This document shows, one piece after another, positions 12,981 to 41,534 of a stretch of DNA of 64,000 nt. Each line of letters starts with the position of its first letter. Position 1 is the stretch's first letter. This DNA is from Patescibacteria group bacterium (GTDB taxonomy: Bacteria; Patescibacteriota; Patescibacteriia; UM-FILTER-42-10): contig JAHJEX010000074.1 of assembly GCA_018825385.1 (NCBI GenBank), positions 997-64,996 of the forward strand. Direction: 5' to 3'. A program made the position numbers and the translations under genes. The notes beneath the pieces are model-generated. The model saw only the letters and a list, made by a program, of their open reading frames with translations, made no database searches and had not been told where the DNA came from.

Positions 12981-14639
12981 CTAGATTTTTTTTACCATAT
13001 ACTCATCCTCAAGCTGATATCCTAGCTTTCGATAATAGTCCCTTACTCCAATTCCGGAAATAACGGCTATTTTTTTGTATCCATTTTTTTTGGATAGTTT
13101 TTCGGCCTCATCCATAAGACGTTTCCCGAAACCTATGTGTTGTGTTCTACCTTTTTTTGTTGATAATGGGATCATTTCTCCGTATGTGTGTAATTCTCGT
13201 AAAAGTGATGCATTCTGTAAGGCACAAATGTAATGATCTTTATTTTTGTCTTTTGGAAATCTTAATCTACAAAAAGCAAAGATAGTAGAATAGTCTTTTG
13301 ACTCGTAGCTCAAAAATATTTCAGTGCCACCAGATGCTTTATATACTCTTTTTACCAGTTTTACATTTTTCTGAGATACCTTCATTCCTCTTGCTTCTCG
13401 ACATCTTATACATCGGCAGAATTTTTCCTCATGTTTAAGCTCATTTTGAATTATCTGACGAATATTTGTAATCTTCATTCCTCCGGAAATGCTTTGTTTC
13501 GGTATATCTCTAAAAAGCCGTGCTATACGAACATATGGCGGGCAAAGTAATTTGATTTCCTTTAGCAGTGCTTTTAGCTTGTTGTCTGAATAGGGCTTAT
13601 ATATTCCGTTTTTCCATAAGTCATATAGCTTAGAGTATTTAGAAACTATGGTCGGATAAATTTTTATTTGATCAGGCTGGAAGTCAGGGTTTGTGAAAAT
13701 CTGCTTAAACATCTCAACATCTTCCTTCGTGGTCGCCTTATATAGTCCTGGCATGAGATGATATGTAATCTTGAATCCCGCATCCTTATACAATTGAGTA
13801 GCCCTAATTGTAGCTTCGACTTTATGACCGCGCTTATTAAAATCCAAAATGTGATCATGAATACTTTGTACACCCATCTCAACACGAGTTGCACCCAACT
13901 CACGCATTAGGTGAACCTCTTTTTTACTTACAAAATCCGGTCTAGTCTCAAGCGTTATACCCACAACCCTATCTTTTGCTGTTTCGTTAAGCTTTTGAGC
14001 TCGTTTCAACTTAGCCATTATTTGATTTCTTCTTTTTTTCGTTTCTAATATACTCTTTACCTCTTTTATTTCATTCACATCAGCTCTGCTTCTTCTACTG
14101 CTTGAAATCCCATCATTAAATGCGTCAAAACATCTCTTTAGATACCAAATCTGGTAAAGAGGATTGTGATAAGACCAAGTCCCACCCATTACAATTAATT
14201 CACACTTGTCAGTTGGATGGCCATTTTCATAATAGGCTCTCAATCTTGTCCTTACCATTTTATAGGGATCAAATTTCTGTGCCATGGACCTCATTACAGC
14301 AGGTTGTGTCGAGAGATAGCTTTTTGGCATGTCATTTTCTGTAGGGCAGTAAATACATTTACCCGGGCAAGGAAGCGATTTTGTGTGTACGCCTATTGAA
14401 GCAATCCCAGAAAGTGTTCTAATGTCACGTATCCTTAAAGCGCGAACAAAATTATTGTTCTTCTTAGTTATTCCCTTATTAACCAATTGCCGGTAATGCG
14501 CTAAAATAAGATTATTGGTATAAAAGGGGATTTGATGTTTCTTAGAAAACTGTCTTTTAAATCGATAAAGATCCCGCCTTCCCTTCAGATCGGCTTTAAT
14601 GGCTTCGGTCACAAATTGTGTAATAATTTTTTGAGGCAT
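12981..14639 (-). CDS. elp3: Elp3-like radical SAM + GNAT enzyme (tRNA wobble-uridine carboxymethyl-type modification family).
   Basis: Radical SAM cysteine cluster CPGKCIYCP. ELIVMGGTW. C-terminal GNAT/HAT block VISGIGVRDYYRKLGYQLEDEYMVKKI, close to the Elp3 C-terminus. 552 aa. Confidence 0.8.
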   Translation of the reverse strand: MPQKIITQFVTEAIKADLKGRRDLYRFKRQFSKKHQIPFYTNNLILAHYRQLVNKGITKKNNNFVRALRIRDIRTLSGIASIGVHTKSLPCPGKCIYCPTENDMPKSYLSTQPAVMRSMAQKFDPYKMVRTRLRAYYENGHPTDKCELIVMGGTWSYHNPLYQIWYLKRCFDAFNDGISSSRRSRADVNEIKEVKSILETKKRRNQIMAKLKRAQKLNETAKDRVVGITLETRPDFVSKKEVHLMRELGATRVEMGVQSIHDHILDFNKRGHKVEATIRATQLYKDAGFKITYHLMPGLYKATTKEDVEMFKQIFTNPDFQPDQIKIYPTIVSKYSKLYDLWKNGIYKPYSDNKLKALLKEIKLLCPPYVRIARLFRDIPKQSISGGMKITNIRQIIQNELKHEEKFCRCIRCREARGMKVSQKNVKLVKRVYKASGGTEIFLSYESKDYSTIFAFCRLRFPKDKNKDHYICALQNASLLRELHTYGEMIPLSTKKGRTQHIGFGKRLMDEAEKLSKKNGYKKIAVISGIGVRDYYRKLGYQLEDEYMVKKI

Positions 14640-15562: not shown

Positions 15563-16990
15563 ATGCAAAATCACAGAGTAAAAATTAAAATTTTGGTGTT
15601 GGCAGTACTGGCAAGTACTGTTTTTTTGATACCTAAAATCGTACAAGCAACAGAGTCACGTGCACCAGAACTACGTATTTTTAATTCCAATAGCTATTCG
15701 GTCGACAAGGCATTTATGGTTTTTGATGAAAACTTTCAGGGTGGCGCATCCGTCGCGATAGGTGACCTTCAGGGAAATGGAACAAATGAAATAGTTGTTG
15801 CACCGGGTCCTGGAGGAGGTCCACACATTAAAATTTTTAAATCAGATGGAACTTTTATTTCAAGCTTTTTTGCATATACCTCTGGCTACAGGAAAGGTGT
15901 GAATATTGCAGCGGGAGATTTGGACGGAGATGGCAAGGATGAAATTATTGTTAGCACTCGTTATGGAGCAACGCCTCATGTCAGAGTTTTTGATGGCAAT
16001 GGTATTCCAAAGTTCACATGGGGATTTTTTGCATACCAAGAAAATTTCAGAGGAGGTGTAAATATTGCAGCCTGTGATGTTGACGGTGATGGAGAGAAAG
16101 AAATAGTAACAGGTGCGGGGCCGGGCGGTGGACCACATGCTCGTGTATTTGATAAAGATGGCACTTATGCGGGTCTGGATTATTTTCCGTTTGCATCAGA
16201 TTTTCGAGGAGGAATTTCTGTAACCTGTGGCAATGTAGATGGCGGTGCAGAAGAGGAGGTAATTTTTAGTGTTCAGACCTCAGATGAAGCATGGGTAAAG
16301 GTTTACAAAACAAATTCTGAGCAGACAGTCCTTGGAATGTTTCGTGCATTTCCAGAATCATTTCGTGGTGGCATAAATATAGCGAGTGGCGATGTTGATC
16401 GTGATGGGCTTGATGAGATAATTGTTGCAGCTAATACTGGCGGTGGCTCACATGTAAGATTTTTTGAGGCCTATGGTTTTCCACATCCCGATTCAATTTT
16501 TGCCTATGAAGATGAGTTCAGAGGTGGAGTCTTGGTAACAGCAGGCGATGCAAATAATGATTCTTATGATGAAGTTATCGTATCTCCAAATAGAAGATCT
16601 ACAGAAGGAAGAACTGATTTGGATAAATATATTGAAATAGATATTTCTGACCAACAATTAAACTACTATGAAAATGGGTATCTTGTTGACTCTACTCAGG
16701 TGTCTACAGGAAAGTGGTCAATGCCGACACCGTTAGGAACATTTAGCATTCAAAATAAGCATCCTCGAGCTTATTCTGCCACTTACAATTTGTACATGCC
16801 TTTCTGGATGCAGTTTGAGTCAAGGGGATATGGACTACATGAACTCCCAGAGTGGCCTAGTGGCTACAAGGAGGGTCAGGACCACTTAGGTATAAGAGTT
16901 TCACATGGTTGTGTCCGTTTAGGTGTCGGTCCAGCAGAGAAACTATATAGCTGGGCAGAAGTTGGCACTACTGTGATTGTAAAAGATTAA
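15563..16990 (+). CDS. Secreted FG-GAP/VCBS-repeat beta-propeller protein with C-terminal L,D-transpeptidase (YkuD) domain.
   Basis: Signal peptide. At least six repeats of the type GDLDGDGKDEIIV...GPGGGPHVRVF (Ca-binding DxDxDG). C-terminal LDT catalytic motif SHGCVRL. Confidence 0.75.
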   Translation: MQNHRVKIKILVLAVLASTVFLIPKIVQATESRAPELRIFNSNSYSVDKAFMVFDENFQGGASVAIGDLQGNGTNEIVVAPGPGGGPHIKIFKSDGTFISSFFAYTSGYRKGVNIAAGDLDGDGKDEIIVSTRYGATPHVRVFDGNGIPKFTWGFFAYQENFRGGVNIAACDVDGDGEKEIVTGAGPGGGPHARVFDKDGTYAGLDYFPFASDFRGGISVTCGNVDGGAEEEVIFSVQTSDEAWVKVYKTNSEQTVLGMFRAFPESFRGGINIASGDVDRDGLDEIIVAANTGGGSHVRFFEAYGFPHPDSIFAYEDEFRGGVLVTAGDANNDSYDEVIVSPNRRSTEGRTDLDKYIEIDISDQQLNYYENGYLVDSTQVSTGKWSMPTPLGTFSIQNKHPRAYSATYNLYMPFWMQFESRGYGLHELPEWPSGYKEGQDHLGIRVSHGCVRLGVGPAEKLYSWAEVGTTVIVKD

Positions 16991-18087: not shown

Positions 18088-19497
18088 ATGAAGAAACTTA
18101 TTATATTTGCAGTTGCAATTTTGCTTGCATTTCCACTATCTGTCTTTGCATATACAAAGACGCGTGCACCGGAGATTCGTGTGTTTGATTCAGATGGAGA
18201 GATGAAAAGAAATCTGACTGTGTACCCTGAAGATTTTTATGGAGGGGTTTCCGTTGCTTCGTGTGATATAGATGGAAACGGGAAAGATGAAATTATTGTG
18301 GGCGCAGGCCCGGGCGGTGGACCAAACGTAAAAATTGTCTGGCCCTATTCACTGAAGATAACCGGATTTCTGGCTTATGCAGAAACTTTCAGAAAAGGAG
18401 TAACAGTTGCCTGTGGCGATCTGAATGGTGATGGTGAGATAGAAATAGTTACAGGTTCAGGATCAGGAGGTGGACCACACATCAGAATATTTGATACCGA
18501 GGGAAATCAAAAGTTTACTCCGGGATTCTTTGCGTTTGGTGAAAATATGCGAGGTGGTGTAAACGTAGCTGTGGGTGATGTGGATGGGGATGGGAAAGAT
18601 GATATTGTCGCAGCACCTGGTTCATCCGGAGGATCGCATGTTAGGGTATTTAACTTTCGTGGTGATTATAAGGGGATAGATTTCTTTCCGTTTCGAGAGG
18701 GCGACAGGGGAGGAGTTTCGTTAGCTGTGGGAAACTTTGATGGTGGGCCGGAAGATGAGATAGTAGTAGCAGTAGAAAAGTTTGGCAAAGCTTGGACAAA
18801 GATCTATAAATTTAATGAATCAAGAACTATCCTTGGTGAATTTGATGCCTACCCCGATTACTTTGAAGGTGGAATTAGGGTAGGTGCGGGTGACGTGGAT
18901 AATGATGGATTTGATGAGGTGATTGTCGCTCCGACAAGAGCAGGTGGTCCACATGTTAGAATGTTTGAAGCACACGGTGAATTGATTGATAATTCCATAT
19001 TTGCTTATGAAGAAGATTTTCGAGGGGGCGTGAATCTTGCAAGTGGTGATATTACCGGAAATGGACAAGATGACATTATTACTGCCCCTGCTGGATGGTT
19101 CAGCGAAAACAGGCCTGATCATTATAAATATATTGAGGTTAACCTAACGGAACAGAAGCTCTATGCTTATGAGAATGATAAATTAGTGGATTCTTTTCTT
19201 ATCTCATCAGGAATTAAGGGAAAATATGATACGCCGATAGGAGAATACAGTGTGTTTCTGAAACGTGAATCCACTGATATGAGCTGGTTCTATGGTCCAG
19301 ATGATCCGGATAACTATGACTTAGAGGATGTGCCTCATGTTCTATCATTTTCAGGCGCATATACGATTCATGGAACTTATTGGCACAATAATTTTGGATA
19401 TCGAATGAGCCATGGGTGCGTAAATATGTCACGTGAGGATTCTGCCTGGCTTTATCAATGGGCAAATCTAGGAATTCCAGTTATTGTTCACGACTGA
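18088..19497 (+). CDS. Secreted FG-GAP-repeat beta-propeller + L,D-transpeptidase domain protein (paralog of 15563..16990).
   Basis: Signal peptide. The same repeat architecture (GDLNGDGEIEIV, GDVDGDGKDDIV). C-terminal SHGCVNM LDT motif. Confidence 0.75.
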   Translation: MKKLIIFAVAILLAFPLSVFAYTKTRAPEIRVFDSDGEMKRNLTVYPEDFYGGVSVASCDIDGNGKDEIIVGAGPGGGPNVKIVWPYSLKITGFLAYAETFRKGVTVACGDLNGDGEIEIVTGSGSGGGPHIRIFDTEGNQKFTPGFFAFGENMRGGVNVAVGDVDGDGKDDIVAAPGSSGGSHVRVFNFRGDYKGIDFFPFREGDRGGVSLAVGNFDGGPEDEIVVAVEKFGKAWTKIYKFNESRTILGEFDAYPDYFEGGIRVGAGDVDNDGFDEVIVAPTRAGGPHVRMFEAHGELIDNSIFAYEEDFRGGVNLASGDITGNGQDDIITAPAGWFSENRPDHYKYIEVNLTEQKLYAYENDKLVDSFLISSGIKGKYDTPIGEYSVFLKRESTDMSWFYGPDDPDNYDLEDVPHVLSFSGAYTIHGTYWHNNFGYRMSHGCVNMSREDSAWLYQWANLGIPVIVHD

Positions 19498-19583: not shown

Positions 19584-21248
19584 ATGGGAATGCGCAAAAA
19601 GCTTTGGGTCAGCCTCCTGCTAATCGCAGTTTTAGCTGGTCTAGCTGGGTTGGTTGATTGGCCAAAAGGTCCTGATATAAGAATTGGGGATTATTTTAAG
19701 GAGATAAAAGTCCATCTCGGATTAGATTTGCAGGGAGGAACTCATTTAGTTTACAAAGCTGATACAGTCGATATTCCTTCCTCTGAAAGGACAGAAGCGA
19801 TAGAAGGAGTTCGTGATGTTATAGAAAGAAGGGTTAACTCTTTTGGTGTTTCAGAACCGGTAGTCCAGACGAATAAATCAGGCGATGAATACAGGGTGAT
19901 CGTTGAACTTCCAGGAGTAACTGATGTAACTCAGGCAATCCAAATGATAGGGGAAACGCCTTTGTTGGAATTCAGAGAGCAGGCGGCACCAGAATTCGAT
20001 GAAGATCAAAACCAGGCAATGGAAGCTTATAATGCTGACGCAAGGATTAGGGCTGAAGAAATATTGTTAGCTGCTTTAGATGATGCAAACGACTTTGCTG
20101 AACTTGCAAAGGAAAAAAGTGAAGGTCCGTCAGCAGAAAGCGGTGGGGATTTAGGTGAATTTGGCCGCGGTGCTATGGTTCCGGAGTTTGATGAGGTAGT
20201 TTTTGAGAAAGCTGAAGTCGGAAAAGTCTATCCAGAATTAGTAGAAACCATGTTTGGCTATCATATTATAAAGGTTGAGAACAGAATAACGAGTGTGAAT
20301 GATGAAGGCGTGGAGGAAGAAAAAGCTACTGCGCGACACATTTTGGTTCAAATACAGTCTGAAGAAGCTGCGGCCTCGACAAATTATGTAAACACAGGTC
20401 TTTCCGGAAAACATCTAGATAGCGCTCAAGTACAGTTTGATCAGTCCACCGGACAGCCGGAAATAAATCTTAGGTTTAATAGTGAAGGAAAAGACTTATT
20501 TGCTGAAATAACAAAGCGTAATTTAGGAAAGCCTGTAGCAATCTATTTAGATCATGCTCCAATAAGTATTCCAATTGTCCAGGCAGAAATAACATCTGGG
20601 GAAGCGGTAATAACTGGCAGCTTCACATTGGAAGAGGCAAAAATACTTACAAGAAGACTTAATTCTGGTGCACTGCCAATTCCGATTTCACTTCTAAATC
20701 AGCAGAATATTGGCGCAACATTGGGACAGGAATCAGTGGAAAGAAGCTTGTTTGCAGGAATACTAGGGCTAGTTCTAGTTGCCATATTTATGATTGCATA
20801 TTATCGACTGCCAGGTTTACTATCAGTAATTGCATTAACTATTTATTCCCTGCTTGTGCTCGCAGTATTTAAACTGTGGCCAGTTACATTAACGCTTGCT
20901 GGAATTGCTGGATTTATATTATCTATCGGTATGGCCGTTGATGCGAATGTACTTATTTTTGAAAGATTAAAGGAGGAATTAAGACGTGGAAAGCCAATAC
21001 TAAGTGCAGTTGAAGATGGATTTAAACGCGCGTGGCCATCAATACGAGATTCAAATGTTTCATCACTCATTACGTGTGTTATTCTTATTTGGTTCGGCAC
21101 AAGCTTAATTAAAGGTTTTGCAATAACATTAGGAATCGGAATACTGCTTAGTATGTTTTCAGCAATTACTGTCACCAGAAATTTCCTAAGAATTTCTGCA
21201 CTCAAGAAATGGAAGGGTTTTTGGTTGTTTGGAGTAAAAAATAAATAG
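19584..21248 (+). CDS. secD: Protein-export membrane protein SecD with an inserted parvulin (PpiC-type) PPIase domain in the periplasmic P1 region.
   Basis: SecD N-terminal and C-terminal TM blocks (LDLQGGTHLVY..., GIAGFILSIGMAVDANVLIFERLKEE). Residues ~140-225, NDFAELAKEKSEGPSAESGGDLGEFGRGAMVPEFDEVVFE...FGYHIIKV, align almost motif-for-motif with E. coli PpiC/parvulin. Confidence 0.85.
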   Translation: MGMRKKLWVSLLLIAVLAGLAGLVDWPKGPDIRIGDYFKEIKVHLGLDLQGGTHLVYKADTVDIPSSERTEAIEGVRDVIERRVNSFGVSEPVVQTNKSGDEYRVIVELPGVTDVTQAIQMIGETPLLEFREQAAPEFDEDQNQAMEAYNADARIRAEEILLAALDDANDFAELAKEKSEGPSAESGGDLGEFGRGAMVPEFDEVVFEKAEVGKVYPELVETMFGYHIIKVENRITSVNDEGVEEEKATARHILVQIQSEEAAASTNYVNTGLSGKHLDSAQVQFDQSTGQPEINLRFNSEGKDLFAEITKRNLGKPVAIYLDHAPISIPIVQAEITSGEAVITGSFTLEEAKILTRRLNSGALPIPISLLNQQNIGATLGQESVERSLFAGILGLVLVAIFMIAYYRLPGLLSVIALTIYSLLVLAVFKLWPVTLTLAGIAGFILSIGMAVDANVLIFERLKEELRRGKPILSAVEDGFKRAWPSIRDSNVSSLITCVILIWFGTSLIKGFAITLGIGILLSMFSAITVTRNFLRISALKKWKGFWLFGVKNK

Positions 21249-22165: not shown

Positions 22166-22196
22166 AACTGCATTATTAGAAATGGCAGTTTTTTGT
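22166..22196 (+). terminator. Weak candidate intrinsic terminator after secF.
   Basis: AACTGC / 13-nt loop / GCAGTT followed by TTTTGTT. The loop is large, so confidence is low. Confidence 0.25.
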
Positions 22197-22209: not shown

Positions 22210-22238
22210 TTGACACATATTCAAGGTTATGCTATACT
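22210..22238 (+). promoter_or_regulatory. Canonical sigma70 promoter TTGACA-17-TATACT driving the 22277-26603 operon.
   Basis: Perfect -35 TTGACA at 22210-22215, a 17-nt spacer, TATACT at 22233-22238. About 35 nt upstream of the ATG at 22277. Confidence 0.6.
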
Positions 22239-22276
22239 AAAATTAGTTAAATTGTGAATTCAAATGCTCTCAAAAT

Positions 22277-23431
22277 ATGAGCGACCAAAGTTCAATTCTA
22301 GATAAAGTTATTAACTCAAAACAAGAGGCAGAAATTGAGGGATTCAGTCCTAGCGAGACCGTTTCTTTATTGTTGAAGTATCTAACAAACAAGGAAGAAG
22401 ACGTTCTAAGACGTCGATTTGGGTTAAACGGTCAAGCAAAAGAGACGTTGGAGGCTATTGGGAAGGCATATAACGTTACTCGTGAGAGGATTCGGCAGAT
22501 AGAAAGCTCTGCGATCAAAAAAATTAAGGGATTAAGAGAATTTGGAGGAGTATCTACAGATTTTGAGCACACCATTTCAAATGTACTTGCTCGCAACGGC
22601 GGGATTATGGATGAAAATTCGCTTTTGCGGGAGTTACTAAATTTTGCCTCAGACAATCCGCTAAATAATAATTGTGCGGTATTTATTTTGGAGGAACTAG
22701 TTTCTAAAAAAATAGTCCGTGTGCCAGCATCGACTAGCGTTGAAAAGTCATGGAGCCTTCCCCATGTTTCAATGGATTTTGTTAATGAAACAATTGGACA
22801 ATTGATTCGAATTCTTGAGAATGATGACAAGCCACTAAAGCTTGATGAGCTTTTAGAAAAGTTTCACCAAACTGACTATTATGCAGGCAAGAATGAAGCT
22901 CTGACAGATGAAGGTAATCATTCTTACATAAATTTAAGTAAAAAGATTGATAATAATCCATTTGATGAATATGGATTAGCAAAGTGGGGATCAATCAACC
23001 CTAAGCGGATGAAAGATAAAATATACCTGGTTTTGAAGAAAGAAAAAAAGCCATTACACTTTAATAAAATTACTGATCTAATAAACAAGGTTAAGTTTGA
23101 TAGACGAAAGGCATATCCACCAACTGTTCATAACGAATTAATTCTGAATAATGATTTTGTCCTAGTTGGTAGAGGAATATATGCGCTTAAAGAATGGGGC
23201 TATAAACCTGGCGTTGTTTCGGATGTGCTGATAAAAATCCTCGAAAAAGCTGATAATCCATTATCAAGAGACGAGCTAGTCAAACGCGTGCTTGAACAGA
23301 GGGTTGTTAGGAAAAATACGATTCATTTGGCGCTTACGGATAAAACCAAGTTTACGAAACTTCCTGATAAACGCTATTCCCTAAATAGCGAAACGCCTGA
23401 TCAGGAAGTTGTAGAGCCAACATCTATTTAA
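22277..23431 (+). CDS. Sigma-70 region 4 (HTH) domain protein with C-terminal HARE-HTH-like winged helix. Putative DNA-binding regulator.
   Basis: Residues ~30-85, EEDVLRRRFGLNGQAKETLEAIGKAYNVTRERIRQIESSAIKKIKG, closely match RpoD region 4.2. The C-terminal block KIYLVLKKEKKPLHFNKITDLI...FVLVGRGIYALKEWGY matches the HARE-HTH / RpoE-delta N-terminal pattern. Confidence 0.6.
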   Translation: MSDQSSILDKVINSKQEAEIEGFSPSETVSLLLKYLTNKEEDVLRRRFGLNGQAKETLEAIGKAYNVTRERIRQIESSAIKKIKGLREFGGVSTDFEHTISNVLARNGGIMDENSLLRELLNFASDNPLNNNCAVFILEELVSKKIVRVPASTSVEKSWSLPHVSMDFVNETIGQLIRILENDDKPLKLDELLEKFHQTDYYAGKNEALTDEGNHSYINLSKKIDNNPFDEYGLAKWGSINPKRMKDKIYLVLKKEKKPLHFNKITDLINKVKFDRRKAYPPTVHNELILNNDFVLVGRGIYALKEWGYKPGVVSDVLIKILEKADNPLSRDELVKRVLEQRVVRKNTIHLALTDKTKFTKLPDKRYSLNSETPDQEVVEPTSI

Positions 23432-23440
23432 TATTCAAAA

Positions 23441-24883
23441 ATGGAAATTTCTATAGATCTTACATCATTGGTTGAACGTGGTGTACAGAATCCGCTTGCA
23501 CTTGCATGGTGGATTTTTGTAAAAGGTGGCTGGGTCGTTTTTTTGATAATTTTTATGGTGGGATTGTATTTTGCGAAGCTTGAGCATGCAAGGAGAAAAT
23601 ACCGAGAGACCGCAGAGCCAGTTTTACTAGCGCTGGATATTCCAAAGGAAAACGAGCAAAGTCTGAAAGCCATTGAACAAATATTTGCGCAGTTACATGC
23701 AAATGAATCCCATGCCAATAAGCTACAGCGATTTTGGCAGGGAAAGGTCCAGAGTCGGTATTCCCTTGAATTGGTAAGCATTGATGGATATATTCAGTAT
23801 TTGATCAGGTCTGATAAAGATAATAGAGATTTAGTTGAAGCAGCAATATATGCTCAATACCCAGATGCGGAGATTACAGAGGTTGGCGACTACACTGACT
23901 CTGTGCCAAATCAATTTCCAAACAAGGATTATGATTTGTGGGGAGCAGAGTTTGTGCTAGCAAAAAATGACGCATATCCCATTCGTACTTATCGTAATTT
24001 TGAGCATACTTTAACTCAAAAATTTGCTGATCCAATGGCTTCGCTACTTGAGGCTCTATCGCGTCTACAGCCTGGGGAACAGACGTGGTTACAGATAATA
24101 ATTACACCTACAGGGTCCGGATGGACCAAAAATGCGGATCGCCTGGTAAAAAAACTAATAGGAGAAAAAACTGCGAGAAAAAAGGGAATGCTTTCTCCGC
24201 TTGCTGACTCTGCAAAAGGTTTTGGCAATGAAGCGGTAAATCAATTGTTGGGGGGAAGTACAGGCTCAACAGAAAAAAGCAGTTCCGAAAAGGAGGAGCA
24301 GAACAAAATAAAATTTCTAACTGCTGGTGCTCAAAGTGTTGTCGAGGCAATTGAAGAAAAAATGGCAAAAATTGCATTTCGAACAAAAATTCGTTTGGTC
24401 TATATTGCAAAGAAGGAAATCTTTGATAAAAATCGAGGCGTGAGACCTGTAAGAGGAGCTATCCTACAGTATAACACTCAAAATCTCAATGCATTTGAAA
24501 CTCATAAAAAAACTAAAACAAAGGCTGATTACATAAGAGTTGATAAGCGAATTGCCCATAAGCAGAGAAAAATTTTACGAGCATATAAAATGCGAGCAAA
24601 TCACTTAGGGATTGGTGAAGGATTCATTATGAATATTGAGGAATTAGCAAGTATATTTCACTTTCCAATTGCAGAAATCACAGTTCCACCTGTTCAAAGA
24701 ACTGAAGTGCGTAAAGGAGGAGCGCCAACGACATTACCGCGTGAATTTATGTCCACATCCGGGATACCTCTCCAAACTCCAGGTGCAAAAATTGCAACTG
24801 ATCAGCCTATGCCAAGAGCAGGTATACCTGAAAATCTTCCTATAGAGATTAATAATACTGACGAATCAAAAGATGGTGAATAG
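23441..24883 (+). CDS. Bitopic membrane protein (one N-terminal TM, large soluble domain), function unknown. Candidate membrane partner of the downstream ATPase.
   Basis: Single ~25-aa hydrophobic segment near the N-terminus. No recognisable catalytic motif. Begins 10 nt after the upstream gene and overlaps the downstream ATPase by 11 nt. Confidence 0.5.
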   Translation: MEISIDLTSLVERGVQNPLALAWWIFVKGGWVVFLIIFMVGLYFAKLEHARRKYRETAEPVLLALDIPKENEQSLKAIEQIFAQLHANESHANKLQRFWQGKVQSRYSLELVSIDGYIQYLIRSDKDNRDLVEAAIYAQYPDAEITEVGDYTDSVPNQFPNKDYDLWGAEFVLAKNDAYPIRTYRNFEHTLTQKFADPMASLLEALSRLQPGEQTWLQIIITPTGSGWTKNADRLVKKLIGEKTARKKGMLSPLADSAKGFGNEAVNQLLGGSTGSTEKSSSEKEEQNKIKFLTAGAQSVVEAIEEKMAKIAFRTKIRLVYIAKKEIFDKNRGVRPVRGAILQYNTQNLNAFETHKKTKTKADYIRVDKRIAHKQRKILRAYKMRANHLGIGEGFIMNIEELASIFHFPIAEITVPPVQRTEVRKGGAPTTLPREFMSTSGIPLQTPGAKIATDQPMPRAGIPENLPIEINNTDESKDGE

Positions 24884-26603
24884 TAATGAAATAACAGTTT
24901 TCGCGGAAACTAATTTTCGTAACAAGAAAGTCAGATTTGGCATCAAAGAAGATGACCGAAGACGACATATATATTTGATTGGGAAAACTGGTGTAGGTAA
25001 ATCAAACTGTATCGAAAATATGGTGATTTCAGATATACAAAGAGGTCGTGGCGTTGCTCTTGTGGATCCGCACGGAGAATCAGTTGAAAAAGTAGTTAAG
25101 TATATCCCATCAAATAGAGTTAATGATGTTGTTTACTTTAATCCGTCTGATACAGAGCATCCTATTGCGTTTAATATACTTGAGGAGGTTAATCCTCAAT
25201 ATAAAAATTTGATTGCATCTGGGTTAGTTGGCGTGTTTAAAAAGATATGGGCGGACTCGTGGGGACCTAGGCTTGAGTACATTCTGATGAATACTATCTT
25301 AGCATTGCTAGAGAATCCTGGAAGCACTCTTTTAGGTATTACAAGATTATTGGTTGATAAGACTTACCGCAAAAAAATTGTTTCTAACCTCACTGACCCG
25401 ATTGTTAAGGCATTTTGGATTGATGAGTATGCAAACTATAATGAACGATTCAGAACGGAGGCAATTTCTCCAATACAGAATAAGGTTGGTCAGTTTCTTT
25501 CTAGCGCAATAATTAGGAATATAGTTGGACAGCCAAAAAGCACGATTGACATGAGAAACATAATGGATAAGAAGAAAATTCTTCTGATGAACCTTGCAAA
25601 AGGAAGGATTGGGGAAGAAAATTCTGCTCTTCTTGGCGCAATGATGATCACTAAGCTTCAATTAGCAGCAATGAGCCGAGTGGATGTCGCAGAGGAAGAT
25701 CGAGAGGATTTCTATTTATACGTTGATGAGTTTCAAAATTTTTCTACAGAAAGTTTTGCAAATATATTGTCTGAGGCGAGAAAATATAGATTGAATCTTA
25801 CTATTGCTCACCAATATATTGAGCAATTAGGTGACGTAGTAAAAGCAGCTGTGTTTGGTAATGTTGGTACCATTGTTTGTTTCAGGGTCGGCGCAGAAGA
25901 CGCTGAATTCCTCGAAAAAGAATTTGAGCCGTATTTTCTTCTGAATGATTTAGTAAATCTTCCAAAATATAATGTTTATATGAAACTGATGATTGATGGT
26001 ATTGCCTCAGCGCCATTCAGTGCAACAATTCTTCCGCCAATCCAGGGAGAAACTGGCAACCTGGAAAAAATTATTACATCATCACGTGAAAGATATGCTA
26101 GACCATTAAAAGTTGTTGAAGAGAAAATACTCAGATGGAGTGGCGTTGAGGAGATGTACAGAGGTGACGCTAATGAAGAAACTGTAACGAAGCCAGCTCC
26201 ACAGTACAAAAAGCCAGTTAGCAGTAGCAATAAAATCACTGAAAACAATGAACGTGTACCTAACGAAAGTAAATCAAAACCAAAATCTGTGGTAAAGATT
26301 TCGGAAGGTCCGGTCGAGCCTGAGATTGATCTGCCACCGACGGAAATCCGCCTAAATGATGCACTACAACAAGGTCCTGTTTCTTTTAGTGAATCAAGAA
26401 AAAGAAATCCAGTATCAACTCAAAATAGTAACAGAAAGCAAGGGGATAGAAACAGAAAGAAAAAACGTCGCAAACCGAAACCTCATCATGCTAAAGAACA
26501 AATTCCACGGTTAGAGCCAAAATCAGATAATGATCAAACCCTACAGCAACAATCTAACAATTATATCCTAGAGCAAGGAAAAAGTGTAAAGTTTGATAAG
26601 TAG
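24873..26603 (+). CDS. TraD/TrwB/VirD4-family (type IV coupling-protein-like, FtsK/HerA superfamily) P-loop ATPase, with no TM anchor and a basic C-terminal tail.
   Basis: Walker A LIGKTGVGKS and Walker B LYVDEFQNF. Overall ~400-aa NTPase core. No N-terminal TM helices. The last ~150 aa are K/R/S/P/Q-rich (NRKQGDRNRKKKRRKPKPHH). Confidence 0.7.
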   Translation: MVNSNEITVFAETNFRNKKVRFGIKEDDRRRHIYLIGKTGVGKSNCIENMVISDIQRGRGVALVDPHGESVEKVVKYIPSNRVNDVVYFNPSDTEHPIAFNILEEVNPQYKNLIASGLVGVFKKIWADSWGPRLEYILMNTILALLENPGSTLLGITRLLVDKTYRKKIVSNLTDPIVKAFWIDEYANYNERFRTEAISPIQNKVGQFLSSAIIRNIVGQPKSTIDMRNIMDKKKILLMNLAKGRIGEENSALLGAMMITKLQLAAMSRVDVAEEDREDFYLYVDEFQNFSTESFANILSEARKYRLNLTIAHQYIEQLGDVVKAAVFGNVGTIVCFRVGAEDAEFLEKEFEPYFLLNDLVNLPKYNVYMKLMIDGIASAPFSATILPPIQGETGNLEKIITSSRERYARPLKVVEEKILRWSGVEEMYRGDANEETVTKPAPQYKKPVSSSNKITENNERVPNESKSKPKSVVKISEGPVEPEIDLPPTEIRLNDALQQGPVSFSESRKRNPVSTQNSNRKQGDRNRKKKRRKPKPHHAKEQIPRLEPKSDNDQTLQQQSNNYILEQGKSVKFDK

Positions 26604-36365: not shown

Positions 36366-37076
36366 ATGAACAATGAAGCTATGATCAGTATAATAGTTCC
36401 AGCTTATCAGCACGGGAATTCAATAAAAGAGTGTTTAGATGCTCTATATGCTCAAACTTATGATGATTTTGAAGTCATTGTTGTTAATGATGGCTCAACG
36501 GATCACACAGCAGCGATTTTGCAGGCCTATGAGCATCCTGTACGGATTATTTATCAAGAGAATTCAGGTGCAAATATTGCAAGGAATCGAGGTTTTCGGG
36601 AAGCACAAGGCAAATATCTTCTGTTCTGTGATGCAGATGTTGTTGCCAATCCTGAAATGCTGATAAAAATGAAAACTGCCCTTGATAATGATCAGAAAGC
36701 AGCTTATTCTTATTGTGATTTTATGTGGGGAATTAAAGCTTTTAAACTTTTTCCATTTAGTTCAGATGAATTACGGAATAAGAATTATATTCATACAACA
36801 TCGCTTATTAGGAAAATATACTTTACGGGTTTTGATGAGTCAATAAAGCGATTGCAAGATTGGGATTTGTGGCTAACTATGATGGAAGCAGGGCATACTG
36901 GAACACATATTCCTGAAACACTTTTTACTGTTAAACCAAGAAAAAGTGGAATGTCAGGATGGTTACCTTCACTTGTATACAAAATTCCTTGGCAAAAAAT
37001 CGGAATAAAAATTAAGCGTCTTGAGAGTTTTAGAATTGCTGAGGAGGTTATTAAGAAAAAGCATTCACTGTTTTAG
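36366..37076 (+). CDS. Family 2 glycosyltransferase (GT-A).
   Basis: ISIIVPAYQ...VIVVNDGSTD and a DAD motif (CDADV). Confidence 0.75.
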   Translation: MNNEAMISIIVPAYQHGNSIKECLDALYAQTYDDFEVIVVNDGSTDHTAAILQAYEHPVRIIYQENSGANIARNRGFREAQGKYLLFCDADVVANPEMLIKMKTALDNDQKAAYSYCDFMWGIKAFKLFPFSSDELRNKNYIHTTSLIRKIYFTGFDESIKRLQDWDLWLTMMEAGHTGTHIPETLFTVKPRKSGMSGWLPSLVYKIPWQKIGIKIKRLESFRIAEEVIKKKHSLF

Positions 37077-38039
37077 GAATCGGTTAATCATGCTTTCCAC
37101 TTCGAGTGCATTCTGCGCCTTCATTAATTCAATGCGCAGTTTTTTTGAATCAGTAAAGTCCGATACATAGGATGAATAGAACTTTCTAATATTGTAGAAA
37201 TTTTTTATCCCTTTGAATGTTTTTTCAAAAAGATGAGAATGCCTAATCAGAAGTTGAAGGCGATCATTATATGTTATCTGATCCGCGCTTTTTCCTGAGA
37301 AAAACCACGGATCATTCATAGCCGCTCTGCCAATCATAACACCATCAACACCAAATTCCTGTGCTTTATCCTTGGCATCCTGAATGCTTTTAACGTCGCC
37401 ATTGCCGATAAAAATCGTTTTCGGACTACTTGCTTTAACAATAGCACCGATACTTTTGATTATATCCCAGTGAGCAGGCACTTTTGACTTCTCTTTTTGC
37501 GTTCTTCCATGGATTATTAATGCTGCCGGTTTCATTTCTAATATCTTTGGAATCCACGACTTAGAAACATCCTTATTGTAACCAATTCTGGTCTTTACTG
37601 AAACAGCCATTTCACCAGCTCCATCTACAGTCGCAGTTATGATTTCCTTAGCTAATAACGGAGTCTTTATGAGGGCTGCGCCGGCACCTTGTTTTTCAAT
37701 TGCTTTGAACGGGCACCCCATATTAATATCAATACCATCAAATCCAAGTTTTTCTATTAGCTTAGCGCTTTTGTAGAAATTAGCAGGGTTGCTTCCAAAA
37801 ACCTGGGCAACAATCGGTTTCTCATTTTCATGGAATTTCAAATCATAGAGCAAACGCTTCCTGCCTGCAGAACACATTCCATCAGCTGAAACAAATTCAG
37901 TAAACATAACATCTGGACCACCACATTGTATTACCATTTGTCTATATGGAAAATCAGTTACGTCATCCATTGGTGCCATTACAAAAAATGGTCTTTTTAA
38001 GCTTTTCCAAAAGTTTCTAGTATTCTTACTATTTCGCAT
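37065..38039 (-). CDS. dus: tRNA-dihydrouridine synthase.
   Basis: FVMAPMDDVTDFPYRQ, IDINMGCP and the FMN-binding TIM-barrel pattern. The start was set to the Met at 38039 (MRNSKNT...) rather than 38099. Confidence 0.8.
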   Translation of the reverse strand: MRNSKNTRNFWKSLKRPFFVMAPMDDVTDFPYRQMVIQCGGPDVMFTEFVSADGMCSAGRKRLLYDLKFHENEKPIVAQVFGSNPANFYKSAKLIEKLGFDGIDINMGCPFKAIEKQGAGAALIKTPLLAKEIITATVDGAGEMAVSVKTRIGYNKDVSKSWIPKILEMKPAALIIHGRTQKEKSKVPAHWDIIKSIGAIVKASSPKTIFIGNGDVKSIQDAKDKAQEFGVDGVMIGRAAMNDPWFFSGKSADQITYNDRLQLLIRHSHLFEKTFKGIKNFYNIRKFYSSYVSDFTDSKKLRIELMKAQNALEVESMINRFLKQ

Positions 38040-38076
38040 ATATTGATTATAGCAGATCAAAATAAAAAGGGAGCAT

Positions 38077-38394
38077 TTAGAATCCTCCCTTCTTCGCAAG
38101 TAGAACTAGGCGGGGAAAAATGCTCCAAGTGTCAGGCTCTTCGGGCTCTGACTTGTCTTCAAGTTGTTCGGAATCCGGATGATCTTTCGCAGCATCTTCT
38201 TCAGCCATCTTCCGTGTCAGAAAGAATTCTGAGTGTAGAGTGTGATGCTCTGTACATAGCATACGAATTTCGAAGACACATAGGTATTTTCCCAGTTCCG
38301 TTGCTATTACCTCAACCACTCGGTCCTCTGATAAATATTCGAAGAGGTCCAGAATGTCCAAACAACCTAGACGTTTCGGCTTTTTTTTAGCCAT
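38077..38394 (-). CDS. Hypothetical 105-aa protein with acidic centre.
   Basis: Perfect Shine-Dalgarno TAGGAGGTGAGAC immediately 5' of the ATG on the minus strand. Chosen over the overlapping + strand ORF 38043..38390. Confidence 0.5.
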   Translation of the reverse strand: MAKKKPKRLGCLDILDLFEYLSEDRVVEVIATELGKYLCVFEIRMLCTEHHTLHSEFFLTRKMAEEDAAKDHPDSEQLEDKSEPEEPDTWSIFPRLVLLAKKGGF

Positions 38395-38749: not shown

Positions 38750-41533
38750 ATGAACAGATCACAGAGAGTAATTTTAGCAACTGTAGCTGCGATATTTGTT
38801 ATCGCTGTTTTACTTACTGGTGCAGTTAGCACTGTTACTGACTGGTTATGGTTTAGCGAGATTGGCCATCAGCAGTTATTCATCACCCCGCTTGTCGCAA
38901 AACTCTCAATGGGATTTGGTGTCGCTATTGTAGCTTTCATATTATTAATGACAATTTTCTCACTAGCCAGAAAATTTTCACCATCCTCCAAATCTTTTAA
39001 TGTTCGAATCAACACTTCGCAAGGTCCAAAAATGAAAGTGGTAGACGCGGGTCCAATTATTCGACGAATTACTGCTCCCATAGTGGCTATTCTTTCAGTT
39101 ATCACTGGAATTATAGCAGCGACAAATTGGGAAACAGTGCTTCTTTATTTTAACAGTACTTCTTTTAATTCTGTTGACCCACTATTTCAGAAGGATATTT
39201 CCTACTATTTTTTCTCTCTTCCCTTTATTGAACTGATATTGAACTTCTCTGTAGGGATCGTACTTGTTGGAATTATCGGATCATTTGTCATTTATCTTTC
39301 ATTGGGAGTGGTGCAGCTGAGAGGAGGGTTGCGCAATTTATTTAGAACTACTGGCCCAAGTATTGTACATGCGGCAAAAAGATTTATTTCTATTCTTTTG
39401 GCAATTTTATTCTTCATCATTGCTGCCAAAACATACTTCATAGAAATGCCGTCTTTGCTTTACAGCACGACTGGATCATTCTTAGGCGCTGGTTATACTG
39501 ATATTCACATTACAGTCCCCATATTGCAAATTTCAGCTATTGTAGCGCTTCTGGTAGGACTACTGCTACTCATACATGCGTTCAAAAGTGTGACAAGAAT
39601 GGTCACATCAGGCATTACTATTTATTTATTAATAGTGATTGTAGGCGGTTGGGCAATTCCTGGAATTGTGCAAAGATTTATTGTTCTTCCAAACGAACTT
39701 GTAAAAGAAACGCCATATATCGAACACAATATAGCTGCAACTCAGAAAGCGTATGGAATTGATAAGGTTGAGAAAAGAGATCTGACGGGGGAAACTACTT
39801 TAACAAATGAAGATATACAAAACAATCAACTAACTATTCAAAACATTCGGCTATGGGACCGTGAACCGTTGTTGGACACATTCAGTCAGTTGCAGGAAAT
39901 ACGAACGTATTATGATTTTGTTTCAGTAGATAATGATCGATACATTATCGACGGAAATTTGCGACAAATTTTGTTGTCTGTGCGCGAGTTAAATGCTGCT
40001 AATCTCCCCCAGAGGAACTTTATCAATGAGCATTTAACATTTACACACGGGTACGGTTTAACAGTTAGTCCGGTAAATGAAGTTACTCCCGAGGGTTTAC
40101 CCGTGCTATTTGTAAAAGACCTGCCTCCAGAATCCTCACTGGCTGAACTGAAAATTGAAACGCCAGAAATTTACTATGGTGAGTTGGCAAATGACTACGT
40201 AATTGTAAACTCAGACGCGAACGAATTCGACTACCCTTCTGGTGAGGAAAATGTATATTCGAATTACACAGGCAACGGGGGGGTTGAAATGTCATCTATG
40301 CTAAATAAATTACTATTTGCACTAAGATTCAAGTCAACAAAGTTGTTTTTGTCTGATGATATTAACAACGAATCTCGTCTGATGATGTATCGTGATATAG
40401 ATCAGCGCGTTAGAAAAGTAGCTCCATTTTTAAAGTTTGATTTAGATCCATATTTGATTATTTCTGAAAGTGGAAATTTGGTTTGGATGTATGATGCATA
40501 TACAACAAGTGACAGATATCCGTATGCAGAGAGAGTTTCAGACCAACGCCTAAAAGACTACACTACTGATGAAACGCCGTTTGCAGACTCAAAGCTGAAT
40601 TACATAAGAAACTCCGTAAAGATCACAATTGATGCTTATACAGGAAAAATGCAGCTTTATGTTTCAGACCCTAACGATCCTATAATTCAGACATATCAGA
40701 AAGTGTTCCCAGAAACTTTCAAGTCGCTTAATGAGATGCCACAAGATCTAAGAGACCATATTCGATATCCAGAGGATTTATTTGTCTTCCAAACAAATTT
40801 ATATTCTGTTTACCACATGGATGACCCGCAGATTTTCTATAATAAAGAAGATCAATGGCAAATCCCCATTAAGCCAGGAAAGGATACTTCTGATCCAATG
40901 ATGCGTCATATGATTATGAAGCTGCCGGAAGAAGAAAAAGAAGAGTTTATACTAATGTTGCCGTTTACACCAAGGGGCAAGGACAATCTGGCTGCGTGGA
41001 TGGTTGTTAGAAATGACAATGAGCATTACGGACAGATAGTTGTGTATAGATTTCCAAAACAGAAACTTGTATTTGGACCTCAGCAGATTATGAACAGAAT
41101 TAATCAGGACCCCGATATTTCAAGACAGATTTCGCTTTGGGACCAAAGAGGATCGCAGGTTGTAGCGGGAAATTTGCTGGTAATTCCTATTGAAGGGTCT
41201 CTGATCTATGTTCAACCAATATATATTCGTGCAGAAGGTGGAAGGATTCCTGAGCTTAAACGCGTAATTGTTGCATATGAAAACAGAATTGCAATGGAAA
41301 CAACATTGGAACAAGCATTAGCAAGATTGTTTGGTGAAATTGACGAAAACTCAGACCAAACAATTACCGCACCGACTGTTGACACCCAGGAATCTGATGA
41401 AAACCTTCTACAGCAGGCAACAGATCTATACAACTCTGCACTGGAAGCTCAAAGGGGCGGTGATTGGACGACATACGGTACGAAAATTGATCAACTCGGA
41501 AGCGTACTTAATAAACTACTACTAGAACAATAA
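38750..41533 (+). CDS. UPF0182-family large membrane protein (COG1615).
   Basis: 927 aa. The N-terminus TDWLWFSEIGHQQLF followed by ~7 TM helices and a large extracytoplasmic domain is typical of UPF0182. Confidence 0.7.
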   Translation: MNRSQRVILATVAAIFVIAVLLTGAVSTVTDWLWFSEIGHQQLFITPLVAKLSMGFGVAIVAFILLMTIFSLARKFSPSSKSFNVRINTSQGPKMKVVDAGPIIRRITAPIVAILSVITGIIAATNWETVLLYFNSTSFNSVDPLFQKDISYYFFSLPFIELILNFSVGIVLVGIIGSFVIYLSLGVVQLRGGLRNLFRTTGPSIVHAAKRFISILLAILFFIIAAKTYFIEMPSLLYSTTGSFLGAGYTDIHITVPILQISAIVALLVGLLLLIHAFKSVTRMVTSGITIYLLIVIVGGWAIPGIVQRFIVLPNELVKETPYIEHNIAATQKAYGIDKVEKRDLTGETTLTNEDIQNNQLTIQNIRLWDREPLLDTFSQLQEIRTYYDFVSVDNDRYIIDGNLRQILLSVRELNAANLPQRNFINEHLTFTHGYGLTVSPVNEVTPEGLPVLFVKDLPPESSLAELKIETPEIYYGELANDYVIVNSDANEFDYPSGEENVYSNYTGNGGVEMSSMLNKLLFALRFKSTKLFLSDDINNESRLMMYRDIDQRVRKVAPFLKFDLDPYLIISESGNLVWMYDAYTTSDRYPYAERVSDQRLKDYTTDETPFADSKLNYIRNSVKITIDAYTGKMQLYVSDPNDPIIQTYQKVFPETFKSLNEMPQDLRDHIRYPEDLFVFQTNLYSVYHMDDPQIFYNKEDQWQIPIKPGKDTSDPMMRHMIMKLPEEEKEEFILMLPFTPRGKDNLAAWMVVRNDNEHYGQIVVYRFPKQKLVFGPQQIMNRINQDPDISRQISLWDQRGSQVVAGNLLVIPIEGSLIYVQPIYIRAEGGRIPELKRVIVAYENRIAMETTLEQALARLFGEIDENSDQTITAPTVDTQESDENLLQQATDLYNSALEAQRGGDWTTYGTKIDQLGSVLNKLLLEQ

Positions 41534-41534
41534 A

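Follow-up and report, generated by a model that had tools for sequence, protein, structure and literature searches.

Organisation of the locus

The subject of this analysis is a group of three genes in a 64,000-nucleotide stretch of a Patescibacteria contig (JAHJEX010000074.1, assembly GCA_018825385.1), which we refer to as the window and in whose positions all coordinates are given. ORF1 (22277-23431, 384 aa), ORF2 (23441-24883, 480 aa) and ORF3 (24873-26603, 576 aa) lie on the forward (+) strand, as do all features described below unless stated otherwise. By Pfam-level annotation they follow secD and secF and precede mnmA and alaS. A first-pass annotation, made from the sequence letters, had described the three genes as a tightly packed operon for a DNA-binding protein, a membrane protein and a coupling-protein-like ATPase. 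The sequence details quoted there were all found and the 11-nt overlap between ORF2 and ORF3 stands, whereas the gap between ORF1 and ORF2, given as 10 nt, is 9 nt.

ORF3 resembles type IV coupling proteins

ORF3 carries a Walker A motif, GKTGVGKS, at aa 37-44 (nt 24981-25004) and a Walker B motif, YLYVDEFQNF, at aa 281-290 (nt 25713-25742). These and the motifs downstream are invariant across the alignment of the ORF3 family, which numbers more than 8,000 homologues; the best 120 are 58-85% identical over the core and come from many Patescibacteria lineages. Using Pfam profiles we observed an alignment to TrwB_AAD_bind over the whole domain (aa 26-339), scoring 37.3 bits against a gathering threshold of 20.5. 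T4SS-DNA_transf scored 23.7 bits (threshold 20.1) and DUF87 was likewise above its threshold, with TraG-D_C just below. AAA_10 matched at the P-loop only, and its 14.6 bits fall short of the 27.5 required, so that ORF3 does not qualify as a VirB4 ATPase. The NCBIfam matches to VirD4-like, TraD and CedD families were also sub-threshold, the best being conju_CD1115 at 48 bits versus a cut-off of 250. Judged by these matches, ORF3 is an ATPase of the FtsK/HerA superfamily that resembles the type IV coupling proteins (T4CPs) and has no membrane anchor of its own, much as the first-pass annotation had proposed. No hydrophobic segment was found in ORF3, the Walker A motif begins at residue 37, and the two-helix N-terminal transmembrane (TM) domain of coupling proteins is absent.

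The core of this VirD4/VirB4-clade ATPase spans aa 1-425 (nt 24873-26147) and in the predicted model contains a helical insertion at aa 108-232. It is followed by a tail, aa 426-576 (nt 26148-26600), that is disordered in the same model. A basic tail of about 150 residues had been described for ORF3; the length holds, but only the second half is basic (aa 500-576, pI 10.7), the first being acidic (aa 426-500, pI 4.95). Within the tail we identified a motif conserved in the family, EIRLNDALQQGPVSF (nt 26343-26387), a polybasic patch, RKKKRRKPKPHH (aa 528-539, nt 26454-26489), and a terminal motif, LEQGKSVKF (nt 26568-26594). Across the family the tails are variable but retain ISLxEALxxxPxSF and a terminal LxPGQVVxF, and they also contain a polybasic run in some members and a CxxC-x17-CxxC zinc finger (PF23477) in the others.

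With TrwB, VirD4, TraD and DotL, ORF3 shares a RecA-like nucleotide-binding domain with a helical insertion and the above-threshold matches to TrwB_AAD_bind and T4SS-DNA_transf, although it is only 12-15% identical to the solved structures. Unlike these proteins it lacks the two-helix TM domain and is not linked to a relaxase or a type IV secretion system (T4SS), and the anchor would here be a separate protein with a domain like the N-terminal domain (NTD) of VirB4.

By far the closest relative of ORF3 that we found outside the Patescibacteria is a 395-aa homologue of the core on the Sulfitobacter mediterraneus plasmid NZ_CP081110 (locus L088, 5935-7122; 40% identity, E 1e-93). This protein has neither anchor nor tail and stands alone between a DUF3768 gene and transposases on an alphaproteobacterial plasmid, an arrangement that, from the sequence, suggests horizontal transfer of the motor alone.

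ORF2 is predicted to combine a membrane anchor with a VirB4-like domain

Searches with ORF2 against Pfam, NCBIfam, PADLOC and the Protein Data Bank (PDB) by sequence methods returned nothing significant. DUF8128 (PF26449) is annotated on a 98%-identical homologue of ORF2, on 118 of the 120 homologues listed and on the syntenic genes, and ORF2 is thus very likely a member of this family. A literature search for DUF8128 returned no papers.

The only hydrophobic segment of ORF2 (aa 23-45, nt 23507-23575) is a TM helix. Since the C-terminal flank of the helix is positively charged, the predicted topology is N-out/C-in. Beyond the helix, about aa 58-417 (nt 23612-24691) form an alpha/beta domain in the predicted structure, with pLDDT mostly >85, which would face the cytoplasm. 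In a Foldseek structure comparison the best twelve matches of this protein were all TrwK chains. As a VirB4 structure consisting of the C-terminal domain only was matched by ORF3 and not by ORF2, we infer that the match of ORF2 is to the VirB4 NTD and that ORF2 has, in the model, a VirB4-NTD-like fold. On the predicted structure ORF2 therefore contributes the N-terminal domain fold that precedes the ATPase in proteins of the VirB4 type. The likeness to the VirB4/TrwK NTD of the R388 T4SS (PDB 7o42, 8rtb) comes without detectable sequence similarity; moreover ORF2 is encoded by a gene of its own and includes a TM helix, and its partner is T4CP-like rather than of the AAA_10 type. A much weaker match was seen to EccE, which stands beside the FtsK-like EccC in ESX type VII secretion, but EccE differs in its two TM helices, and the locus has no further ESX components.

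The folded domain is followed by a disordered tail with two copies of a short motif, GAPTTLP (aa 427-433, nt 24719-24739) and IPENLP (aa 462-467, nt 24824-24841). In the DUF8128 family the first takes the form EPPxxLP directly after the folded domain and the second PPxNLP[FIV], usually at the very C-terminus; in the window, ORF2 has 13 extra acidic residues after the second copy. A DUF8128 profile search of 1.84 billion representative proteins gave 3,384 clusters, of which the best 150 are all 366-691 aa in length, and the longer members differ by longer disordered linkers only.

Relatives of both proteins occur in plasmid conjugation clusters

Using tblastn with the ORF3 core against plasmids we obtained matches in 604 records, including Bacillus (309), Streptomyces (118), haloarchaea and Sulfolobus. 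Weak matches to ORF2 on plasmids fall in or beside the same genes as the ORF3 matches. The Bacillus subtilis plasmid NZ_CP032854 (24.7 kb) encodes an 886-aa 'DUF87 domain-containing protein' (WP_121549396) that matches both profiles: residues 40-161 align to the DUF8128 profile (hhalign probability 96.2, E 2e-9) and residues 316-719 to the ATPase profile (probability 99.9, E 5.5e-34). Its gene lies directly upstream of a Replic_Relax relaxase gene, in an operon that includes a TcpE-family gene and a separate, true VirB4 (AAA_10, 389 bits). This VirB4 served as a negative control and matched neither profile, with a probability of 0.8% against that of ORF3.

On the Natrinema plasmid pNVE500 the same two parts are encoded by an overlapping pair of genes (WP_138247052 and WP_229504813), as in the window. 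A 395-aa hypothetical protein aligns to the DUF8128 profile over residues 67-358 (probability 94.9) and a 1,027-aa TraM-recognition ATPase to the ATPase profile (probability 99.8), and the pair adjoins the gene of another conjugal-transfer protein. No named NCBIfam family was matched by the plasmid homologues, and ORF1 was absent from those of their neighbourhoods that we examined.

Both modules of the window pair are therefore homologous, at the profile level and in the same N-to-C order, to a fused protein in Bacillus and a split one in Natrinema. Because of this we conclude from the profile comparisons that the window pair is a chromosomal split form of the coupling-slot ATPase of monoderm and archaeal conjugation systems. 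Because the relatives are fused in Bacillus or overlapping in haloarchaea, ORF2 would be the missing N-terminal module of ORF3. This places a combination that the first-pass annotation could assign to no system it knew. It also bears on the suggestion that ORF2 is a single-pass protein serving as an anchor: the single TM helix and the Bacillus fusion support this, but ORF2 is more than bitopic, given its predicted VirB4-NTD-like DUF8128 domain. The plasmid versions differ in that they sit with relaxase, VirB4 and TcpE, whereas the window pair stands alone in a housekeeping context, and the Patescibacteria proteins have tail motifs of their own, namely PPxNLP, ISLxEAL...F and LxPGQVVxF. The assignment fits the derivation of the Patescibacteria T4SS from the MPF-FATA class of mating-pair-formation (MPF) systems (PMC12102498).

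ORF2 and ORF3 form the conserved unit in Patescibacteria

For a view across the group we used a set of loci seeded on DUF8128 with one genome per GTDB species; the 80 loci kept are all from metagenome-assembled genomes (MAGs) of Patescibacteria type. The ATPase gene lies directly downstream of the DUF8128 gene in 55 of the 75 evaluable loci, at a median distance of 6 nt (n=51). ORF1 is directly upstream in 40 of 78 loci, where the median distance to ORF2 is 108 nt (n=39), and secF is found upstream in 46 of 70. These frequencies and distances identify ORF2 and ORF3 as the robust two-gene module and ORF1 as a frequent neighbour within a housekeeping gene order, secD-secF-(ORF1)-ORF2-ORF3...mnmA-alaS, that recurs across classes. 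The synteny expected of the trio thus holds well for ORF2-ORF3 and in about half of the loci for ORF1, which is separable and absent from the plasmid homologues, and the three-gene functional unit proposed at first gives way to one of two genes. Fusions of DUF8128 with the ATPase within the Patescibacteria were found neither in the 80+ loci nor in the best 150 of the 3,384 clusters, and in loci from MAGs labelled Saccharibacteria the two genes are separate.

Loci with a DUF8128 gene and no adjacent ATPase gene (L031, L035, L036, L049, L050, L064 and L083; also L038, L045, L051, L052, L063 and L082) include two groups. One is Magasanikbacteria-like, with the C-terminal PPxNLP replaced by ...EEYG or ...FG. 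The other keeps PPxNLP, and after its DUF8128 gene come a glycosyltransferase-like gene and genes for two large unknown proteins.

The frequent presence of secF upstream (46 of 70 loci) suggested a functional tie to SecDF, but the secA...secDF...mnmA-alaS arrangement looks like an inherited core order, and sec genes are absent from the plasmid homologues.

Many of the MAG records that carry the locus (L007, L008, L017, L019, L028, L039 and others) bear the title 'uncultured Gammaproteobacteria bacterium' or Binatia. Their gene content is nevertheless that of Patescibacteria and their chromosomes, where complete, measure about 0.9-1.1 Mb, and the organism labels look wrong.

ORF1 joins a sigma region 4 to a HARE-HTH domain

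In ORF1 we identified a group-1 sigma region 4 at aa 26-90 (nt 22352-22546; Pfam Sigma70_r4 at aa 33-84, 8e-12) and a HARE-HTH domain at aa 245-309 (nt 23009-23203; Pfam at aa 245-307, 9.5e-11), assignments made with Pfam and NCBIfam and, for region 4, also by profile. A variable middle region separates the two and a conserved C-terminal domain follows them; the HARE-HTH is the most conserved part of the family alignment. The profile of the family matches RpoD/SigA region 4 structures with E 7e-18. Pfam, NCBIfam and profile searches revealed no sigma region 2 or 3. Every homologue shows a conserved N-terminus from residue 6 onwards, so that no domain upstream has been overlooked, and an extracytoplasmic-function (ECF) or conventional sigma factor recovered by reassigning the start was rejected. 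The first-pass annotation was borne out in that it saw a sigma region 4 and a HARE-HTH but no other sigma regions.

Region 4 of ORF1 is almost identical to the group-1 sigma-70 consensus, but sigma regions 1-3 are missing, and with region 4 in the absence of region 2 the protein scores 29 bits on the sigma-70 family model TIGR02937, whose cut-off is 42.9. With the delta subunit of RNA polymerase (RpoE) it shares the delta-type HARE-HTH, here placed internally; it scores 33.2 bits on TIGR04567 against a cut-off of 42, lacks the long acidic tail and has additional middle and C-terminal domains. All 5,953 homologues are of Patescibacteria type and carry the NCBI name 'sigma factor-like HTH DNA-binding protein', and on this sequence evidence the combination of sigma region 4 with HARE-HTH is a Patescibacteria-specific family. 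A literature search for the two together returned no papers. Sigma region 4 contacts the beta-flap and the -35 element, and the N-terminal domain of delta contacts RNA polymerase.

Upstream of ORF1 lies a sigma-70-type promoter (22210-22238), TTGACA-17-TATACT with an extended -10 TG (TGcTATACT), which is the sole 11/12 consensus match within 21-28 kb. Promoter-like sites as a whole were not enriched in the consensus scan (23 observed, 20.9 expected). We aligned the secF-ORF1 spacer of the window with those of four loci (L089, L090, L091 and L006) whose ORF1 proteins are 81-87% identical to ORF1 of the window. In these five genomes the block GTTTTTTGTTA..ACCA.TTTCTTGACAC.TATTCAA..TT.TGCTATACT is invariant and its flanks diverge. 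The block runs from the T-run after secF through both promoter hexamers and includes most of the spacer between them. As it is invariant in five genomes while the surrounding DNA diverges, the promoter recognised by the first-pass annotation is, by sequence conservation, real and beyond chance.

The five genomes conserve the 17-nt spacer of the promoter (22216-22232, CATATTCAAGGTTATGC) nearly as well as the hexamers, a hint that an operator or other protein-binding site overlaps the promoter, and it is conceivable that ORF1 regulates itself through its -35-reading sigma region 4. Reading the sequence after secF we also noted a weak hairpin, ACTGC/GCAGT, with a T-run (22167-22195). This element, ACTG...CAGTTTTTTGTTA, is conserved in the five related genomes and is likely to be the secF terminator; the terminator scan did not call it, the stem being just 5 bp and the loop long.

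Genomic setting

The genes of the window run mraY-murD-ftsW-murG-murC-murB-secA, two FG-GAP/YkuD genes, secD, secF, the trio, mnmA, alaS, rpsD and rpoA, with glycosyltransferases, mreB and holB downstream of rpoA. This is the content of a typical Patescibacteria core chromosome. The GC content is about 37% and composition is uniform, with no anomaly found across the window. A tRNA scan and an Rfam search of the window gave no match, and no meaningful repeats flank the trio. Among the large annotated ORFs at 1.4-59 kb there is no T4SS or integrase gene and no relaxase or MPF cluster, and no relaxase or T4SS cluster was seen in the 6-8 kb flanks of those loci whose genes carried Pfam calls. A mobile or integrative conjugative element was accordingly rejected, there being no integrase, tRNA, repeat boundary or composition shift and the position being conserved across classes. 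The ORF2/ORF3 locus belongs to the core chromosome, as had been supposed from its secDF-mnmA setting.

Several neighbouring genes have unusual features. In SecD (19584-21248) a peptidyl-prolyl isomerase domain of the PPIC type (Rotamase) is inserted at aa 145-233, an architecture that recurs in syntenic SecD proteins from other loci of the Patescibacteria (L001, L089-L091). The two genes upstream of secDF (15563-16990 and 18088-19497) encode paralogous secreted proteins with FG-GAP repeats and a C-terminal YkuD L,D-transpeptidase domain, and their position is kept in related genomes. The window has two large minus-strand ORFs (at least 150 aa), a Dus gene (37065-38099) and a gene at 12981-14639 that joins radical-SAM, Radical_SAM_C and GNAT acetyltransferase domains in an Elp3-like architecture. 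At 38750-42371 a PD-(D/E)XK nuclease-family protein comes directly after a UPF0182 membrane protein of 927 aa (961 bits).

Discussion

Orphan T4CP homologues in Patescibacteria are already known. A survey of 3,035 Patescibacteria genomes counted 5,713 VirD4-type homologues in 2,918 of them, only 148 of which lie near virB4, and found VirB4, which forms a clade of its own in this group, in 2,417 genomes (PMC12102498). Relaxase homologues were rare, with only 109 spread over 103 genomes, and are missing from most T4SS clusters. The authors left exaptation of the Patescibacteria T4CP open, and DUF8128 is not mentioned (PMC12102498). The T4SS of Southlakia, the single species in which this was tested, was found to be essential by Wang et al. 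(2023), with no recognisable coupling or relaxase proteins in cis (PMC10633639).

Against this background we consider it moderately probable that ORF2 and ORF3 are a two-polypeptide, membrane-tethered ATPase of the T4CP type that acts, likely in trans, with a relaxase-less chromosomal T4SS. ORF3 would be a catalytically intact motor, with its RecA-like core and helical insertion, and to judge from the predicted structure is presumably a hexameric ring like TrwB, VirB4 and HerA. ORF2, predicted to be held in the membrane by its single N-terminal TM helix with the large VirB4-NTD-like domain facing the cytoplasm, very plausibly supplies the anchor that ORF3 lacks. By analogy, it would hold the ring at the membrane and dock it to a channel, the tethered C-terminal PPxNLP peptide being the likely docking motif, and the disordered tail of ORF3 may recruit a nucleic-acid or nucleoprotein substrate. 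The module would have been domesticated into the Patescibacteria core chromosome and inherited vertically.

To us the most likely role is that of an ATPase for coupling or translocation which serves a chromosomal T4SS in trans, and CedD is the precedent. CedD and TedD of the archaeal Ced and Ted DNA import systems are likewise chromosomal VirD4-like ATPases unlinked from a relaxase-less, T4SS-like apparatus, and for some CedD orthologues, which have no TM domain, anchoring through a partner has been proposed (PMC11823120). The match of ORF3 to CedD is at the P-loop level only (32 bits versus a cut-off of 600), so the two belong to different families. The DNA-import role of CedD was demonstrated genetically (PMC11823120), whereas the ORF3 family is known here from sequence.

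Genes of Southlakia bear directly on this proposal. SEML1_0294 is essential and has Sigma70_r4 at 27-72, HARE-HTH at 225-283 and four HTH-type domains in all (PMC10633639). Directly downstream on the same strand, SEML1_0293 encodes 921 aa, with an ATPase domain from about residue 361-402 and the three Pfam families of ORF3 from residue ~402 onwards; it is non-essential, though its read counts fall over time (PMC10633639). SEML1_0294 and SEML1_0293 are the apparent orthologues of ORF1 and ORF3, as Pfam architecture and synteny only would have it. The N-terminal extension of SEML1_0293, about 380 residues, has a size that fits a fused DUF8128 and makes the protein a candidate fusion. Southlakia also requires another long T4CP-like paralogue, SEML1_0142, a protein of 1,019 aa without Pfam matches whose P-loop domain spans 381-800. 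The gene ahead of it, SEML1_0141, is small, hypothetical and likewise essential (PMC10633639). SEML1_0142 might be the actual partner of the T4SS, or else another fusion of the DUF8128-like kind.

Several of these observations weigh against the proposal. With the Southlakia T4SS essential, SEML1_0293 dispensable and SEML1_0142 essential, the phenotypes argue that the ORF3 family is not an obligate partner of the T4SS, with the reservation just given on orthology. T4CP homologues are present in 96% of Patescibacteria genomes and VirB4 in 80% (PMC12102498). This wider distribution, together with the Southlakia data, leaves real room for a physiological role independent of the T4SS. Within the window, no T4SS gene was seen among the large ORFs at 1.4-59 kb, and about 20 of the 75 evaluable loci have a DUF8128 gene with no ATPase gene beside it. 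The complex of ORF2 with ORF3 is one that we infer, the likeness of ORF2 to the VirB4 NTD is structural only and comes from a predicted model, and ORF2 has one TM helix where canonical T4CPs have two.

These points lead to the strongest of the alternatives, a housekeeping translocase independent of the T4SS, in which ORF2 and ORF3, alone or with a further channel, for instance ComEC, would move DNA or RNA in or out of the cell for nucleotide scavenging or transformation, without any relation to the VirB4/VirB6 apparatus. We regard this as unlikely, but it accommodates the excess of T4CP homologues over VirB4 and their almost complete separation from virB4. The dispensability of both SEML1_0293 and comEC in co-culture, where the T4SS is essential, is in keeping with it (ComEC is present and non-essential in Southlakia; PMC10633639), as is the polybasic patch or zinc finger in the tail, which suits nucleic-acid binding. 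The 58-85% identity of the core over the best 120 matches implies strong natural selection. A hexamer of ORF2, however, would bring six single TM helices to the membrane with no obvious pore, so that another channel would be required, and neither comEC nor pilus genes are linked to the locus in the 80+ loci examined. The homologues from outside the candidate phyla radiation whose context can be interpreted are all found in conjugation clusters. In a more specific version, which we think rather less likely still, the pair would have evolved from a conjugative coupling protein into a near-universal, membrane-tethered machine that translocates nucleic acids independently of the T4SS, importing or exporting host-derived DNA or RNA, for instance so that organisms unable to make nucleotides can scavenge them.

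It is also possible, if improbable, that all three proteins form a dedicated system in which ORF1 is either a DNA-binding adaptor that delivers DNA to the motor or the specific regulator of the operon. The trio shares one conserved promoter here with only 9 nt between ORF1 and ORF2, ORF1 is directly upstream in loci of many classes (40/78), apparently also in Southlakia (SEML1_0294-0293), and it has several HTH or winged-helix domains. Against this, the adjacency extends to about half of the loci, the median gap of 108 nt contrasts with the 6 nt of ORF2-ORF3, the plasmid homologues are without ORF1, and the Southlakia phenotypes are opposite, the ORF1-like gene being essential and the ATPase gene non-essential. 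The secDF...mnmA order is conserved regardless, so the adjacency may be inherited gene order. The best-conserved modules of ORF1 contact RNA polymerase in the contexts where they are known. For this reason, and because the Southlakia counterpart is essential, ORF1 is probably an independent, essential RNA-polymerase-associated or promoter/DNA-binding factor rather than a subunit of the machine, and in this lineage it may merely share a promoter with ORF2-ORF3.

The top structural match of ORF2, VirB4/TrwK, raised the question of whether the pair is a split VirB4, an assembly or pilin-dislocation ATPase with ORF2 as the NTD and ORF3 as the C-terminal ATPase. We think this very improbable, as the whole-domain match of ORF3 is to TrwB_AAD_bind and that to AAA_10 is sub-threshold and confined to the P-loop. 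In addition, the plasmid of Bacillus that encodes the fused homologue carries a true VirB4 as well, a separate protein matching neither profile, the fused gene stands beside the relaxase in the position of a T4CP, and the Patescibacteria already own a VirB4 clade.

Weak PADLOC matches to mad8 (48.9 bits) and HerA would point to an ATPase of anti-phage defence, like HerA, DptH or MADS, or the pair might be a decayed remnant of an integrated conjugative element, but either is scarcely credible at a locus that has neither defence genes as partners nor a nuclease, methylase, integrase, tRNA or repeats, with intact catalytic motifs in ORF3, a position fixed in a housekeeping neighbourhood across classes, and a near-universal distribution and very high conservation that are unlike patchy islands or decaying elements. 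A replacement for FtsK or a nucleoid or chromosome-partition device, the latter among the first-pass suggestions, was rejected, since Southlakia retains a canonical FtsK that is essential (PMC10633639).

Patescibacteria account for a large part of bacterial diversity and rely on their hosts for building blocks, nucleotides among them. To the published count of orphan T4CP homologues in this group (PMC12102498), our analysis adds that one orphan VirD4-like family appears to be built from two parts, a DUF8128 anchor and an anchorless motor, and that the same two parts, fused or split, take the place of the T4CP on conjugative plasmids of Gram-positive bacteria and archaea. It also separates from them the upstream sigma4/HARE-HTH gene, probably an essential transcription-associated factor. 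DUF8128 thereby gains a concrete, testable role, and the pair becomes a candidate for a motor acting in trans, either with the Patescibacteria T4SS or in the uptake of DNA. It is in addition a data point on the relation between the VirB4 and VirD4 architectures. If the T4SS-independent translocase were to prove correct, the joining of a VirB4-type N-domain to a VirD4-type motor would preserve an intermediate that bears on how VirB4 and VirD4 diverged.

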